Source: Nitrospirota bacterium (lineage in GTDB: Bacteria; Nitrospirota; Thermodesulfovibrionia; UBA6902). Taken from it: a stretch of 64,000 nt of DNA. A program made the position numbers and the translations under genes. Location: NCBI GenBank assembly GCA_016222905.1, contig JACRPZ010000049.1:532-64531 (forward strand), written 5' to 3'. Positions 34,697 to 40,786 of the stretch are shown here, piece by piece (position 1 is the stretch's first letter; every line of letters begins with the position of its first letter). The notes under the pieces are model-generated. The model was not told where the DNA came from. It worked only from the letters and a program-made list of their open reading frames with translations, and made no database searches.

Positions 34697-37600
34697 TTAA
34701 GGGCTGCACCCCGCGTTTATGACCTCCGTCACCCTTGCCTGAAACTCCAGTGAGTTCACAAACTCAGTAAGAAGTGTCGGTCTTGTATACACGCCTCCGT
34801 TAAGCTCTCCAAGCCAGTACAGATACCCCGCAAGATCCGCGCCTCTCCTCATTATGCCGTTATACAGGTCTTCCATATACTCGCTGTTGCTTGTATTCCT
34901 GTCAGCGTACTCCTGACTGTTAAGGAAGCCTAACGCCGTCTGTGATGTAAGGTCTCTTATTGCCTGCGCGTTTCCGTTGCACTGGGCATCCTGCATCTGC
35001 ACAAGCCAGGAGTTGAATCCAACGTCATCAGGCAGTCTGCTCAGAAATCCCCTGTACAGGTCATTTACAAGGTTATACTCCGGCCTTACTGATGTGTCTC
35101 CGAATATGCCGTCCATATACAACTTGAACTCTGCGCTGAATATGAAGTAGTTCAATAAGAGGTTCCTTGTTAATCCGCCTGAAAGCTCTCCTGCCCAGTA
35201 GTCCGCCTCTCCCTGTGATGGTGTCCTGCCAAGGAATGTCTCATACAGGTCTATCACATATGCATTATCTGTTGTGTTCATGCTCAGATACTCTCCTGAG
35301 TTGAAGAAGAGCTTGCCAAGGGCTATGAATCCCTCTTTTATGTCTATGCCGAGCGAGACAACTCGTTCTATCTCTAACGTCCAGTAAAATACTCCTCCGG
35401 GCTCCGGCGCCCTGTTCAGGATGCTGTTGTAGTAGTAGATTACGAGATTAGCTATTGGGCCATTGAGTTCCTTAATCTCCACATCATCAATATACCAGCC
35501 GTCTCCTGTTGCACCATCCCCGTCTGCAAGCAATCTGAACCTTATCAGTACTGACGGTGTTTTGTAACTGCTCAGGTCTAACAGATCATTTATCCATGTG
35601 GGATTATTTACACAATCGTAACTCTTCAGAATATCCCAGGATAATCCTCCATCGTCAGAGGCTTCCACAATAGGACTATCAGGACCATTAGGACTGCAAT
35701 CTGTATTACCCTTGTACCAGAAGGACACCACGGGATATACAAAGCCGGTTAAATCTATCGGATGCGCAAGAGTCAGTGAGGCATTTGTATTGTCAAGATA
35801 ATCCCCGTTAGGACTGTCTGTTGCTGAATGGGTAGTACTGCGAGCATCAGATGTCGTTAAATCCCAGTCATACCCGCTGACTTCCCAATTGCTAAGCCCG
35901 ATCTCAAAGTTGTCAAAGAATGGGAAAGGTGTTGTTGACGGGTCCTTTTCCTTAATCGTCACGTCATCAATATACCAGCCATCGCCTGTTGCACCATCCC
36001 CGTCTGCAATTAATCTGAACCGTATTAGCACTTCAGATGTCTTATAACCGCTTAAGTCCAACAACTCTCCTGCCCAGGTGGGATTATTTACACAATCGTA
36101 ATTCTTCAGAATATCCCAGGATAATCCTCCATTGTCAGAGGCTTCCACAATAGGACTATCAGGACCATTAGGACTACAATCTGTATTACCCTTGTACCAG
36201 AAGGACACCACGGGAGATACCGTCCCAGTTAAGTCTATCGGATGTGCAAGAGTCAATGAGGCATTTGTATTGTCAAGATAATCCCCGTTAGGACTGTCTG
36301 TTGCTGAATGGGTAGTACTGCGAGCGTCAGATGTTGTTAAATCCCAGTCATACCCGCTTACTGTCCAGTTACCAAAACCATTCTCAAAATTGTCGGAGAA
36401 TGGATAAGACAGTCTTACAGTGTCCTTTTCCTTAATCTCCACATCATCAATATACCAGCCGTCTCCTGTTGCACCATCCCCGTCTGCAAGTAATCTGAAC
36501 CGTATTAGCACTTCAGATGTCTTATAACCGCTTAAGTCCAACAACTCTCGTGCCCAGGTGGGATTATTTACACAACCATAATATCTTGGAACATCCCACG
36601 ATAACCCTCCATTTTGAGAAACTTCTACACGAGGATCATCAGGCCCATTAGGGCTGCAATCTGTTTGACCCTTATACCAGAAGGACACCACGGGAGATAC
36701 CGTCCCAGTTAAGTCTATCGGATGCGCAAGAGTCAGTGAGGCATCTGTATTGTCAAGATAATCCCCACCAGGACTGTCTGTTGCTGAATGAGTGACACTG
36801 CGAGCGTCAGATGTTGTTAAGCCCCAGTCATCTATCCAGTTGCAAAGTCCGCTTTCAAAATCATCATAGAATGGAAAAGACAATGTTGTCCCGCCGCATC
36901 CTTCGTCTATTTGTCCATTGCAGTTATTGTCAATGCCGTCGCCGGGGACTTCTGTCATGCCGGGATTTATTGCTGCGTCGCTGTCATTACAGTCAGTTCC
37001 AGGTGTTGTCTGACACCCGGCTGGAACCTGTGGAAGTGTCCCATCAATTGATGAATCAAAATACGTATCGCCGTCACTATCGCAATAATAATCAAATGAT
37101 TGAACTCCGCCCCGAACGCACCGGACGTAGCTGCTATCGTACTTACTGTAGTAGCTGACGTAGCCATCGTAGAAGAGCACGCCCCACGCGTAGTTCGTAT
37201 AGTTCGCGTGGGTAGTAGACGACCAGTAGAAGTTCCAAATGGCTCCAATCTGGAAGAATGTGGTATCTATCGCCGGATCGTATCTCGTATCATCAGTTAT
37301 GGACTCAAGCTCCTTGATATTCGGTAAGCGCCAGTCTGTCTGTCCGCTTCCTGGGGGCAGTGCAAGGTTCTCGCAATAGTTGAGCGCATCAGACCACGTC
37401 ATTTCTCCCGGCTCTGCCTGCTGCCACATGAGACCTGTCGAAGTATCGCTTATGGTGCCGTCATGATTGTCAATAAAATTACCAAAGTCCAACTCACCGC
37501 CCCGAACGCACCGCACGTCATAGAAATTGTACTTACCGTAGCTGAGGACGTAGCCATTGCCGAAGTACACGTGCCACGCGTAGTCCGGATAGCTTGCGAA

Positions 37601-40600
37601 GGTAGTAGACGACCAGTAGTAGGACGCATTGGCATTCGGGAAATATGTTGTGTTAATTGTCGGGACAGGGGAAGGGATAGAATAATCAACAATGCTCATC
37701 AGTTCCTTCTTTGTCGGCAGACGCCAGTCCGTGTAACCACCGGTAGTCAACTCACCGCATACATCCTGTGACAACGGATTATAAGTCGCATCATATGTTC
37801 CTGAAGCCTGATACCAGTTGTAGGTCGTTGGGTTTTCGTCCTGCTGCCACATCAGTCCTGTGTTGTTATCCGTAACCGTGCCGTCACCATTGTCAGTGTA
37901 GGACATCGGGTTGATGTTGTAAGCCCCGTCCTGCCCTGTTCCTGCGCATGGAATTTCATCATAGGGATCAATACCTCTATAGCACTTCGTCTGGCCGGTG
38001 TCGGGAAGTTTAAAGGCAGTTGGCCCGCCGCAGCCCTCATCTATCTGACCGTCACAGTTATTGTCTATTCCATCGCATATCTCAGTTGCTCCGGGATGAA
38101 TCTGATCATTGCCGTCGTCACAGTCAGTGTTGTCCACCACATATCCGGCAGGCTGTGAACATGCGTTTATTAATATCCCTGCGTCTCCATATGTGTCACT
38201 GTCCGCATCACGGTAGTAGGTTGCTGTTGGTAGACCTTCATCTATCCCCCCTTCGCAGTCATTGTCCACGCCATCGCATATCTCAGTTGCTCCGGGGTTG
38301 ATGGCTGCGTTGCCATCATTACAGTCGCCTGACGTTGCTGTTAATTCTGTTGACGCCTTATAACCGGCAGGTCTTAAGCATTGTACGGTCATATCCCCGC
38401 TTGAATACAGATCATTATCTGTATCTTGATACCAGGTCTGATTTGGGTGTTCTAACGGGTCGCTGTCGTCACAGTCATCTCCCGGTGTTGTATGGCATCC
38501 CGGAGGTTCGCATCCAATGCCTACGCAGGTCCCATCACTTGATGAATCTATGTAGGTATCAGCGTCATTATCACAATAATAGTCAAATGACCCAGCCTGT
38601 TCTGTTATCTTTACTACAAAGACATCACTACTGCCTGCATTTGACCCCTGAAACGGGTCCTGTGTTGGAAAGTTGGTTGAGTCTGTTCCACCTGTGACAT
38701 AGGCATTGCCTGAGCCATCCACTGCTATGCCACGGCCTGCATCTTCATTTCCACCGCCAAGGTATGTGGAGTAGACACGGGCGGTGCCCCCTGCATTTAT
38801 CTTTGCTACAAAGGCATCACTACTGCCTGCATTTGACCCCTGAAATGGGTCCTGTGTTGGAAAGTTGGTTGAGGCTGTTCCACCTGTGACATAGGCATTG
38901 CCCGAGCTATCCACTGCTATGCCACGGCCTGCATCATCATTTCCACCGCCAAGGTATGTGGAGTAGACAAAAGGGGAAGTGCCTGAAGAATTTATCTTTG
39001 TGACAAAGGCATCTCCATTGCCTGCATTTGTCCCCTGAATCGGGCCCTGTGTTGGAAAGTTGGTTGAGTCTGTTCCACCTGTCACATAGGCATTGCCTGA
39101 GCCATCCAATGCTATGGCACGGCCATAATCACCACCACTCCCGCCAAGGTATGTGGAGTAAACAAGGGGGAGAGAGCCTGAAGAATTTATCTTTGTGACA
39201 AAGGCATCAGAAGCGCCTCCTCCATTTGTCCCCTGAATCGGGCCCTGTGTTGAAAAGTTGGTTGAGGCTGTTCCACCTGTCACATAGGCATTGCCTGAGC
39301 CATCCACTGCTATGCCATAACCATAATCACCACTACTCCCGCCAAGGTATGTAGAGTAGACAAGGGGAAGAGTGCCTGAAGAATTTATCTTTGTGACAAA
39401 GGCATCATAACCGCCTCCTCCATTTGTCCCCTGAATCGGGCCCTGCATTGGAAAGTTGGTTGACTGCGTAACTCCTGTCACATAGGCATTGCCTGAGCCA
39501 TCCACTGCCATGCCATGGCCCTCATCCATACCATCGCTCCCGCCAAGGTACGTGGAGTAGACAAGGGCAGAGCCGAATGAATTTATCTTTGTGACAAAGA
39601 CATCTCCATTGCCTGCATTTGTCCCCTGAATCGGGCCCTGCATTGGAAAGTTGGTTGATTGCGTAACTCCTGTCACATAGGCATTGCCTGAGCCATCCAA
39701 TGCTATCCCATAGCCAACATCTTCATCTCCACCGCCAAGGTATGTGGAGTAGACACGGGCAGTGCCTGCTGCATTTATCTTTGTGACAAAGGCATCACTA
39801 CTGCCTGCATTTGACCCCTGAAATGGGTCCTGTGTTGGAAAGTTGGTTGACAATGTCTGTCCTGTCACATAGGCATTGCCTGAGCCATCCAATGCTATGC
39901 CAAAGCCAGAATCATAATCACCACCGCCAAGGTATGTGGAGTAGGAAAGCACGGGGTCTATGATGAGTGGATATTTTTTATTATAAGAGGCAACCTCAAA
40001 ACCGAATACGGGTTGTGAGCCTTTAATTCTGAACTTTGAACCATGAACTATGAACTGTCCCTTAACCTCTACCTTTTTGCCGTCTATCTCCTGATAGATG
40101 ATGGGCTTTTTCTGAGTGATGCTGCCTTCTTTAAGGGTTATCTCAAGGTCTCCTGCCTCTGTAACTTTTAACCCTTTTATGCCTTCATATTTCAGCCTTA
40201 CCTGTGACGGGTCCGCGCCAGGTTTTATTAGGATGTCATACTCAAGCTGGCGGTTGTTTCCATAAAACTTTATATCTATTCCCTTATAGAGGTCTTTATA
40301 AACCACTTCCCTGTAGGTTGGTATATTGGTCTTCCACTTTTCAGGGTCATTGCCGATAAAGTAGTTGACCTTGCCTTCCTGTGGCCCTTCTGCAATTATC
40401 TTGGGAGAAGGATTGGCGCCACGGGGGATGAGCTTTACAAGCTCTGATTTTACTCTCTTCTTATCTGCTGAGAGTTTATCTTTCTTATGACCCCTAACCT
40501 CTGACCCCTGACCTGTGACTAATTGCAGATAAACCCCTTCTTCTGTAAAGTAGGTGCTATGTCCTGAACCTCTTTCATAGAACTTGACCTTCTTGTCTGT

Positions 40601-40786
40601 CTGACCGTCGTTTTGTATGAATGAAAGCGGAAGTTTCCCATAAGCCACTGCTATCTTTGCCTCACTGTTCTCTTTCCCGGTCATTGAGATAGCAGCATTC
40701 CCTGTAAAAAGAAGGCTGGAGAGCATCGCCGCAATAAAAAATACCGTCATGACAAACCTTCTCTTAACTTTAACCATATGCGCCAT
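34697..40786 (-). CDS. Giant exported multidomain surface protein: SBBP beta-propeller repeats, MopE-like metal-binding repeats, two DUF1566 (CLec-fold) domains, three beta-sandwich repeats, C-terminal DUF4214-like anchor
   Basis: Signal peptide; 7x STYLGG..AYVTG; DCND...PGATEICDG.DNNC; 2x WRLP..KEL..YWSST..VRCVR; 3x GWYIDDV; YYNSILNRAPE and LYETFLGR repeats. Confidence 0.85.
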   Translation of the reverse strand: MAHMVKVKRRFVMTVFFIAAMLSSLLFTGNAAISMTGKENSEAKIAVAYGKLPLSFIQNDGQTDKKVKFYERGSGHSTYFTEEGVYLQLVTGQGSEVRGHKKDKLSADKKRVKSELVKLIPRGANPSPKIIAEGPQEGKVNYFIGNDPEKWKTNIPTYREVVYKDLYKGIDIKFYGNNRQLEYDILIKPGADPSQVRLKYEGIKGLKVTEAGDLEITLKEGSITQKKPIIYQEIDGKKVEVKGQFIVHGSKFRIKGSQPVFGFEVASYNKKYPLIIDPVLSYSTYLGGGDYDSGFGIALDGSGNAYVTGQTLSTNFPTQDPFQGSNAGSSDAFVTKINAAGTARVYSTYLGGGDEDVGYGIALDGSGNAYVTGVTQSTNFPMQGPIQGTNAGNGDVFVTKINSFGSALVYSTYLGGSDGMDEGHGMAVDGSGNAYVTGVTQSTNFPMQGPIQGTNGGGGYDAFVTKINSSGTLPLVYSTYLGGSSGDYGYGIAVDGSGNAYVTGGTASTNFSTQGPIQGTNGGGASDAFVTKINSSGSLPLVYSTYLGGSGGDYGRAIALDGSGNAYVTGGTDSTNFPTQGPIQGTNAGNGDAFVTKINSSGTSPFVYSTYLGGGNDDAGRGIAVDSSGNAYVTGGTASTNFPTQDPFQGSNAGSSDAFVAKINAGGTARVYSTYLGGGNEDAGRGIAVDGSGNAYVTGGTDSTNFPTQDPFQGSNAGSSDVFVVKITEQAGSFDYYCDNDADTYIDSSSDGTCVGIGCEPPGCHTTPGDDCDDSDPLEHPNQTWYQDTDNDLYSSGDMTVQCLRPAGYKASTELTATSGDCNDGNAAINPGATEICDGVDNDCEGGIDEGLPTATYYRDADSDTYGDAGILINACSQPAGYVVDNTDCDDGNDQIHPGATEICDGIDNNCDGQIDEGCGGPTAFKLPDTGQTKCYRGIDPYDEIPCAGTGQDGAYNINPMSYTDNGDGTVTDNNTGLMWQQDENPTTYNWYQASGTYDATYNPLSQDVCGELTTGGYTDWRLPTKKELMSIVDYSIPSPVPTINTTYFPNANASYYWSSTTFASYPDYAWHVYFGNGYVLSYGKYNFYDVRCVRGGELDFGNFIDNHDGTISDTSTGLMWQQAEPGEMTWSDALNYCENLALPPGSGQTDWRLPNIKELESITDDTRYDPAIDTTFFQIGAIWNFYWSSTTHANYTNYAWGVLFYDGYVSYYSKYDSSYVRCVRGGVQSFDYYCDSDGDTYFDSSIDGTLPQVPAGCQTTPGTDCNDSDAAINPGMTEVPGDGIDNNCNGQIDEGCGGTTLSFPFYDDFESGLCNWIDDWGLTTSDARSVTHSATDSPGGDYLDNTDASLTLAHPIDLTGTVSPVVSFWYKGQTDCSPNGPDDPRVEVSQNGGLSWDVPRYYGCVNNPTWARELLDLSGYKTSEVLIRFRLLADGDGATGDGWYIDDVEIKEKDTVRLSYPFSDNFENGFGNWTVSGYDWDLTTSDARSTTHSATDSPNGDYLDNTNASLTLAHPIDLTGTVSPVVSFWYKGNTDCSPNGPDSPIVEASDNGGLSWDILKNYDCVNNPTWAGELLDLSGYKTSEVLIRFRLIADGDGATGDGWYIDDVTIKEKDPSTTPFPFFDNFEIGLSNWEVSGYDWDLTTSDARSTTHSATDSPNGDYLDNTNASLTLAHPIDLTGFVYPVVSFWYKGNTDCSPNGPDSPIVEASDDGGLSWDILKSYDCVNNPTWINDLLDLSSYKTPSVLIRFRLLADGDGATGDGWYIDDVEIKELNGPIANLVIYYYNSILNRAPEPGGVFYWTLEIERVVSLGIDIKEGFIALGKLFFNSGEYLSMNTTDNAYVIDLYETFLGRTPSQGEADYWAGELSGGLTRNLLLNYFIFSAEFKLYMDGIFGDTSVRPEYNLVNDLYRGFLSRLPDDVGFNSWLVQMQDAQCNGNAQAIRDLTSQTALGFLNSQEYADRNTSNSEYMEDLYNGIMRRGADLAGYLYWLGELNGGVYTRPTLLTEFVNSLEFQARVTEVINAGCSP
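35465..36890 (-). repeat. Three tandem near-identical intragenic repeats of about 480 bp
   Basis: TTSDARS.THSATDSP.GDYLDNT.ASLTLAHPIDLTG...GDGWYIDDV repeated three times with DNA-level identity. Confidence 0.85.
37106..37231 (-). repeat. DGR-type variable repeat VR2
   Basis: FYWSSTTHANYTNYAWGVLFYDGYVSYYSKYDSSYVRCVRGG; differs from VR1 mainly at positions 1-2 of NNC/NNT codons. Confidence 0.8.
37496..37621 (-). repeat. DGR-type variable repeat VR1
   Basis: YYWSSTTFASYPDYAWHVYFGNGYVLSYGKYNFYDVRCVRGG; gap-free 126-nt alignment with VR2. Confidence 0.8.
38590..39945 (-). repeat. Seven tandem SBBP beta-propeller repeats of about 190 bp
   Basis: Near-identical DNA blocks such as CACATAGGCATTGCCTGAGCCATCC and CCGCCAAGGTATGTGGAGTAG. 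Confidence 0.85.

Follow-up and report, generated by a model that had tools for sequence, protein, structure and literature searches.

Tandem variable regions in a 2029-residue Nitrospirota protein as non-adjacent targets of a multi-target diversity-generating retroelement

Introduction

The targets of a diversity-generating retroelement (DGR) need not lie beside its template repeat (TR) and reverse transcriptase (RT). In the available text of the survey by Wu et al. (2018; PMC5758913), non-adjacent targets are reported for 45 of 372 DGRs, with up to seven such targets, and a target is termed 'remote' when it lies more than 100 kb from the cassette; the same text groups targets of the DUF1566, DUF823 or Fib_succ_major type as category 'd', or CLec2, with the Legionella DGR (LdtA) as exemplar, and describes three RTs with a C-terminal MutS_I domain as well as an MSL accessory family. 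Several variable regions (VRs) in one open reading frame (ORF) are also on record: as far as the accessible parts of these reports go, Marichromatium purpuratum 984 has three VRs in a single ORF (Schillinger et al., 2012; PMC3521204), several VRs overlap the same ORF in 31 DGRs (Yan et al., 2019; PMC6642488), and DGR 4/5 of Thiohalocapsa PB-PSB1 has three tandem VR-bearing C-type lectin (CLec) domains that are diversified in trans (Dore et al., 2024; PMC10907252). There is published precedent for targets at remote sites, for DUF1566 domains as targets, for RTs that bear MutS_I and for more than one VR per gene. The subject of this study is a gene for a 2029-aa protein on a 64,000-nt stretch of DNA from a Nitrospirota draft genome (GCA_016222905.1), here called the window, which corresponds to positions 532-64531 of contig C25 (JACRPZ010000049.1). 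Two blocks within this gene, VRa and VRb, are very probably variable regions of one DGR whose core, comprising TR, RT and the accessory protein Avd, lies elsewhere in the genome.

This gene is a true double-VR target, not adjacent to its DGR, which is of non-phage type, serves several targets and has an RT fused to MutS_I. To judge from the portions of the literature available on the Legionella DGR (LdtA, category 'd'), the two systems share a VR that overlaps a DUF1566/Lcl_C domain, a target with a signal peptide and the appearance of a surface protein, and the presence of Avd and of MutS-like sequence; they differ in that the domain is doubled here and sits in the middle of a 2029-aa multi-domain protein, about 800 aa short of its C-terminus, and in that the MutS-like part is fused to the RT instead of forming a separate MSL gene. 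In this last respect the RT resembles the MutS_I-bearing DGR RTs in the available text of Wu et al. (2018), its C-terminal extension matching MutS domain I. Treponema denticola and other non-phage DGRs, as represented in the same body of text, likewise have one TR, several targets off the cassette and no phage genes around; the Treponema element is of the HRDC type, unlike the combination of avd and an RT-MutS_I fusion found here. With the Marichromatium and Thiohalocapsa systems, so far as the accessible descriptions extend, the locus has in common several VRs of one TR in a single protein, carried by tandem lectin-fold domains away from the RT. The targets of those systems are CLec domains of the formylglycine-generating enzyme (FGE)-sulfatase type fused to vWA in MoxR/VMAP conflict systems, in contrast to the Lcl_C domains described here, which belong to a secreted protein with beta-propeller, MAM-like and DUF4214 modules encoded near yajC-secDF. 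Pfam found neither vWA nor FGE-sulfatase domains in the 2029-aa protein, and the locus falls outside the VMAP/MoxR class of Thiohalocapsa DGR 4/5 as described in the available text, with which only the tandem-VR principle is common ground.

Two variable blocks and their template

A preliminary description of this DNA had proposed that two internal repeats of the 2029-aa protein are VRs written in trans from a single template. The gene and the two blocks, in window positions (as are all coordinates given without a contig prefix), are:

34697..40786, minus strand: target gene, 2029 aa (from the ORF list, its translation and Pfam)
37496..37630, minus strand: VRa, the 126 nt described earlier plus 9 nt of added 5' homology (AATGCGTCC)
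37106..37232, minus strand: VRb, in which homology to the TR begins about 7 nt later than in VRa

The 126-nt blocks 37621..37496 and 37231..37106 align without gaps and differ at 28 nt, which fall 14/10/4 on codon positions 1/2/3; 19 codons differ, 16 of them non-synonymously, and the scaffold codons singled out in the preliminary description are identical. Its counts (28 differences, 24 at codon positions 1 and 2, four at position 3, 16 of 19 non-synonymous) were correct throughout, as was its remark that the rest of the two domains is much more diverged: 98/126 nt are identical between the 42-codon blocks, with 38 of 42 third positions alike, compared with 136/276 nt (49%) and 37/92 aa in the aligned upstream halves of the domains, where only 34 of 92 third positions agree.

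The draft genome searched is a metagenome bin of 90 contigs (2.84 Mb, 44% GC, estimated contamination 1.53%). Genome-wide blastn with both blocks, the check that the preliminary description had suggested, returned nine further matches on contigs C53, C29, C46 and C39, and one of these is a TR beside an RT and avd, to whose adenines the mismatches map:

C53:9014-9146, minus strand: TR, directly 5' of the RT (from blastn and alignment)

This copy is identified as the TR because it has A wherever the other copies vary, because its upstream flank is unrelated to the lectin domain in the alignment, and because of its position directly 5' of the RT. The RVT_1 matches of C53 fall between two of the blastn matches. 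The TR contains 14 AAC and four AAT codons, with 45 A in 126 nt. The template sequence predicted from the two blocks agrees with the actual TR in 23 of 25 codons and departs from it at codons 1 and 12.

Differences between the blocks and the TR are concentrated at template adenines. Over 126 nt (45 adenine and 81 other sites), VRa mismatches the TR at 22/45 adenines and 2/81 other positions (Fisher p = 3e-10) and VRb at 20/45 and 2/81 (p = 5e-9); VRa and VRb differ from each other at 24/45 template-A positions as against 4/81 others (p = 8e-10). All 90 contigs were scanned on both strands with an ungapped mask that scored only the 88 non-adenine positions of the 133-nt TR core (which has the same 45 adenine sites). 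With up to 30 mismatches allowed, this mask scan gave nine matches: the single TR, six VRs with at most 6/88 mismatches each, and two decayed copies, C46_b (10) and C39_b (23). Mismatches to the 133-nt core are as follows:

VRa: 22/45 A-site, 2/88 non-A
VRb: 20/45 A-site, 6/88 non-A
C53_VR1: 17/45 A-site, 1/88 non-A
C53_VR2: 19/45 A-site, 0/88 non-A
C29_VR1: 22/45 A-site, 3/88 non-A
C29_VR2: 21/45 A-site, 2/88 non-A
C46_b: 23/45 A-site, 10/88 non-A

Four of the six non-A mismatches of VRb lie within its first 7 nt, 5' of where TR homology starts. Even third codon positions of the VRs have been homogenised to the TR, against 49% DNA identity in the remainder of the two domains. With TR, Avd and RT on C53 and the mismatches on template adenines, the proposal of one template acting in trans on both blocks stands, and the expectation of further remote targets was borne out by the mask scan.

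The same data bear on ordinary paralogue divergence, in which positive selection on binding residues, together with gene conversion of the scaffold, would have produced the pattern without any retroelement. Tandem Lcl_C pairs are indeed a conserved module, present in 10 of 40 relatives searched as well as in further paralogues of this genome. Divergence of this kind leaves unexplained why the differences match the A positions of a separate, non-coding, AAC-rich copy beside an RT and Avd, and why third codon positions are conserved inside the block alone; it is extremely improbable and, because the TR was found, refuted in practice.

The retroelement cassette on contig C53

The cassette and its two local targets lie on the minus strand in the order avd, 228-aa target, TR, RT and 1259-aa target:

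C53:10286..10648, minus strand: avd-like gene, 120 aa (Pfam bAvd, 41.4 bits, cut-off 40)
C53:9534..10220, minus strand: Lcl_C target of 228 aa with its VR at the C-terminus
C53:7012..9075, minus strand: RT ORF with RVT_1 (match at C53:7876-8823) and MutS_I
C53:2716..6495, minus strand: target of 1259 aa with Lcl_C and VR near the N-terminus and DUF4214 at the C-terminus

The cassette is flanked by cellular genes (OmpA, a histone-deacetylase-family gene, LemA and TPM), with no phage genes among them. The first ATG of the RT lies inside the TR, which thus also serves as RT N-terminal coding sequence (MATSTTTIRT...), an N-terminus that recurs in relatives. Many RT relatives among those listed have a precomputed DUF1566 match at the N-terminus, presumably from a TR that overlaps the ORF.

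RTs of the DGR clade carry the motif 4 signature [LIV]GxxxSQ. In the C53 RT the motifs LPIGNLTSQ and YVDDF are intact and stand in columns that are invariant among eight aligned relatives. The family is large, with at least 7735 of 8000 scored candidates at E <= 1e-10, and the nearest named relatives among the matches listed are Nitrospiraceae and Nitrospirae proteins from metagenome-assembled genomes.

The MutS_I match covers RT residues 548-626 (C53:7096-7458; Pfam, 30.9 bits), and the region aligns to residues 16-116 of Thermus MutS (1ewq, E 7e-8). The Thermus segment FQVGkFcEfyGE stands opposite FQVGDFYECFGE of the RT, so that the Phe-x-Glu pair, which we take to be the mismatch-contacting motif of MutS, is kept; both residues are invariant in the eight-sequence RT alignment. 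Since PF01624 occurs in 89 of the 120 best database relatives listed, the RT-MutS_I fusion is far commoner than the three cases in the available text of Wu et al. (2018) would indicate.

Three insertions that keep the reading frame, at about aa 186-262, 433-480 and 590-604, make the RT about 130-180 aa longer than is typical of the family. In the first two, the ends consist of copies of a repeat of about 35 nt that is dispersed over dozens of contigs; a further copy is located between the first target and the TR (about C53:9272-9349). The insertions of close relatives at these three sites differ from those described here, and distant relatives lack insertions there, which suggests that these are tolerated loops that attract an element resembling a miniature inverted-repeat transposable element (MITE).

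Other RTs of the genome were considered as the DGR core and rejected: that on C26 is a group II intron RT (416 bits), those on C28 and C65 are group II-like fragments, and a 646-aa RT on C29 has QGxxxS instead of SQ and no TR nearby. The C29 protein (C29:13847-15787), encoded about 13 kb away from the C29 VRs, has the motifs QGxxxS and YVDD as well as a C-terminal region that is long and helical; it reaches the cut-off of no NCBIfam RT model and may be an RT of the defence type. The C28 fragment (C28:4576-6502; 174 aa, with a TAG within the RVT_1 match) is directly upstream of cas1 and may belong to an RT-associated CRISPR adaptation module with a broken RT.

The target protein and the predicted lectin fold

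By its translation and Pfam, the 2029-aa protein has a signal-peptide-like N-terminus followed by DUF7948, seven SBBP beta-propeller repeats, MopE-type Cys-rich motifs, two Lcl_C (PF07603, formerly DUF1566) domains, three Reelin-subrepeat-B/MAM-like modules and, at the C-terminus, two DUF4214 domains. The VRs are indeed mid-protein, about 800 aa before the C-terminus, as first described; the suggestion that the protein is cell-anchored is not supported, there being a signal-peptide-like N-terminus and two C-terminal DUF4214 domains without a recognised anchor, nor is 'hypervariable' in the sense of variation that is still going on. On one side the gene adjoins yajC-secD-secF-recJ, on the other genes for a methyltransferase and a CHASE2 cyclase; the setting is an ordinary chromosomal one, and the surrounding genes include no DGR parts. 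A profile search and the mask scan over all contigs found neither an RVT_1 match nor a template on C25, as expected from the earlier statement that no template repeat or RT is nearby.

The two lectin domains, detected by Pfam as two separate stretches, are:

37496..37900, minus strand: first Lcl_C/C-type-lectin-like domain, about aa 963-1097 (approximate, from model secondary structure), with VRa as its last 42 codons
37106..37477, minus strand: second Lcl_C/C-type-lectin-like domain, about aa 1104-1227 (best Pfam stretch 1110-1225), with VRb as its last 42 codons

Both are predicted to adopt a C-type-lectin fold. An AlphaFold model of residues 950-1250, built from an eight-row alignment of paralogues and relatives, gave a pLDDT of 83.5 and a pTM of 0.82 for the double domain. 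Among PDB structures Foldseek ranked the C-terminal domain of Legionella Lcl first (8q4e_A; probability 1.00, TM-score on the target 0.60). Next in rank came C-type lectin domains of Endo180, the mannose receptor and DEC205. When the double domain was compared with the PDB by sequence, nothing relevant emerged, the sole match being a chance one at E 0.61. In the model each VR spans the last three strands of its own domain.

By the established DGR mechanism, the TR transcript would be reverse-transcribed with random misincorporation opposite adenines, and the cDNA would replace the homologous VR, turning AAY codons into NNY and resetting all other bases to the template. Each VR makes up the last 42 codons of an Lcl_C domain with predicted C-type-lectin fold; with two template-fitting VRs on neighbouring lectin domains, the secreted 2029-aa protein would display two independently randomised binding surfaces side by side.

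Further targets, relatives and contig linkage

Six VRs in five genes on three contigs fit the TR, VRa and VRb among them. Besides the window gene and the two C53 targets, these are:

C29: two target proteins of 234 aa and 402 aa, with C29_VR1 and C29_VR2 on the same contig

All five targets start with a sequence that reads as signal-peptide-like, and three of them end in DUF4214 pairs according to Pfam.

Four decayed copies (C46_a, C46_b, C39_a and C39_b) occur in two further genes, and C46_a and C39_a carry indels. The genes in question (C46:11041-13008 and C39:29861-31386) encode proteins with Lcl_C domains in tandem pairs, the VR-like ends of which show decay when compared with the TR; the C39 gene is apparently split from its own DUF4214 tail, now a separate 82-aa ORF. 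Two more tandem Lcl_C pairs, 44-52% identical to that of the window, lie in a 3305-aa open frame on C58 (C58:16943-18877); the mask scan found no match to the TR in them, and they may be stable paralogues of the diversified domains.

Tandem pairs from other genomes and metagenomes were compared with the TR of this genome. The halves of the pairs at five foreign loci (L016, L039, L029, L027 and L033) have 5-20/81 non-A and 20-29/45 A-site mismatches to it; at L016, in relative G033, the figures are 6 and 5 of 81 non-A and 20 and 24 of 45 A-site, and at L039 11 and 9 of 81 non-A. Because these foreign pairs resemble the TR at non-A positions and differ from it at A sites, the double-VR target is probably a recurrent design of this DGR lineage rather than a one-off.

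The TR-like scaffolds in other organisms also bear on whether the match between contigs could be a binning artefact, with the TR/RT contig derived from another population and the true template of VRa and VRb a related, unassembled one. The draft is a metagenome bin in 90 contigs with some estimated contamination, and the halves of the G033 pair come as close as 5 and 6 of 81 to the TR. The window VRs nevertheless fit the TR (2/81 non-A) better than any sequence from another genome does (4-20/81). C25 and C53 also match in GC content (0.438 and 0.432; C29, 0.438) and tetranucleotide profile (correlation with the bin mean 0.986-0.987 for C25, C53 and C29, against a median of 0.977 over 78 contigs), and they share the dispersed repeat family; DUF4214 tails common to three of the five targets likewise speak for one genome. 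An artefact of this kind is very unlikely.

VRa and VRb are non-adjacent targets of the C53 TR. With the VRs on C25 and the TR on C53, the separation would be about 35 kb or more even for abutting contigs, a lower bound that is all a draft assembly gives, to be read beside the 100-kb usage of 'remote' cited above.

Recognition elements and present-day activity

DGR 3' target-recognition elements, as known from Bordetella phage BPP-1, comprise a GC-rich stretch, the initiation of mutagenic homing (IMH) sequence and a downstream hairpin. A GC-rich 3' end (CGGTGCGTTCGGGGCGG) is common to the TR and all VRs. Five of the six VRs also have a motif, TTTGGTAATTT or TTTGATTATT, 10-16 nt to their 3' side, among them the flanks at window positions 37090-37110 and 37470-37495; the motif is absent after the TR. 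In four of these five cases it is coding linker sequence, and the C53_VR1 copy is in a non-coding flank. The motif may serve target recognition or may simply be a linker that is conserved.

Several observations weigh against the assignment of VRa and VRb to the C53 DGR. The linkage of C25 to C53 in a 90-contig metagenome bin rests on binning, composition and the TR/VR match. No curated DGR-RT model is passed by the C53 RT, whose best NCBIfam match is group II RT at 104 bits, below cut-off. The Avd match is marginal, since Pfam bAvd barely passes and NCBIfam DivGenRetAVD reaches 39.6 bits against a cut-off of 80. Among the 40 relatives searched, the RT has no match but one weak one (28% identity, E 1.6e-11). 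The three repeat insertions might impair the RT, no conserved hairpin or cruciform was found 3' of the VRs, and each window VR departs from the TR at two non-adenine sites (102 and 103 for VRa, 34 and 108 for VRb), changes that homing should erase. The G-to-C change at TR position 108 of VRb is common to the decayed paralogue C46_b and for that reason may lie outside the transferred tract.

Some of these observations could also mean that VRa and VRb are relic targets, once written by this DGR and no longer so, with recognition elements lost or the RT crippled by repeats. The two non-adenine mismatches per window VR, the sharing of the position-108 change with C46_b and the interruption of the RT ORF, in frame, by a dispersed repeat at three sites would all fit such a history, and the decayed C46 and C39 copies show that sites of this type fall out of use. 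Set against it are the non-adenine identity to the TR of 79/81 in both VRs, compared with 49% in flanking domain DNA, and the RT itself, whose frame is open through all three insertions with every catalytic motif kept, the differing insertions of relatives at the same sites suggesting tolerated loops. The available text of Yan et al. (2019; PMC6642488) reports non-A changes in 379 of 850 VRs and a non-A mismatch rate of about 1.5% as usual. That the two VRs are relics is a real possibility, somewhat short of an even chance.

Population data came from assembled Logan contigs of four runs (X1-X4) of one groundwater study. In X1 and X2 one 1378-nt contig spans 36791-38168 without a differing letter; X3 and X4 cover the region in fragments with 0 or 1 differing letters, and no VR variant is listed in the assembled contigs, a result that says nothing for or against ongoing diversification, as Logan contigs drop rare variants and one run may be the source of the bin itself. 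Differences at 37340-37474 and at most joints were rejected as alleles, a 1768-nt contig representing the C39 paralogue and others being further paralogues. An orthologue of the target was found neither in the same-genus genome G001 nor, at more than 68% identity, among the 40 relatives, and a metagenome scan for orthologues gave 23 loci, all at or below 76% identity. The chances that VRa and VRb are still rewritten today are about even.

Implications

In a more far-reaching proposal, which is unlikely, one chromosomal DGR whose RT bears a MutS mismatch-recognition domain with its Phe-x-Glu motif would rewrite at least six sites in five secreted proteins, the 2029-aa protein, with its two lectin domains randomised independently, would be a bivalent, combinatorially variable binder, and MutS_I, being fused to the RT, might protect the heavily mismatched cDNA:VR heteroduplex against mismatch repair by the host, enabling efficient distant homing.

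The locus shows that a remote DGR target is recognisable from sequence alone, its template having been predicted nearly codon for codon (23/25), and it contributes a well-resolved DGR with several targets, found in a metagenome bin from groundwater, with six VRs in five genes on three contigs. Points of interest are the tandem VRs on Lcl_C domains in mid-protein, the frequency of RT-MutS_I fusions and an RT frame that is open although riddled with repeats. Surveys restricted to the surroundings of the RT overlook such targets; the metagenome survey of Roux et al. (2021; PMC8144416) is, by its available text, blind to remote ones. Host MutS lowers retrohoming 5- to 10-fold for a Bacteroides DGR, according to the accessible part of that report (bioRxiv 10.1101/2024.11.15.621889), and together with the abundance of the RT-MutS_I fusion in metagenomes this makes the present lineage suited to testing how DGRs contend with mismatch repair.

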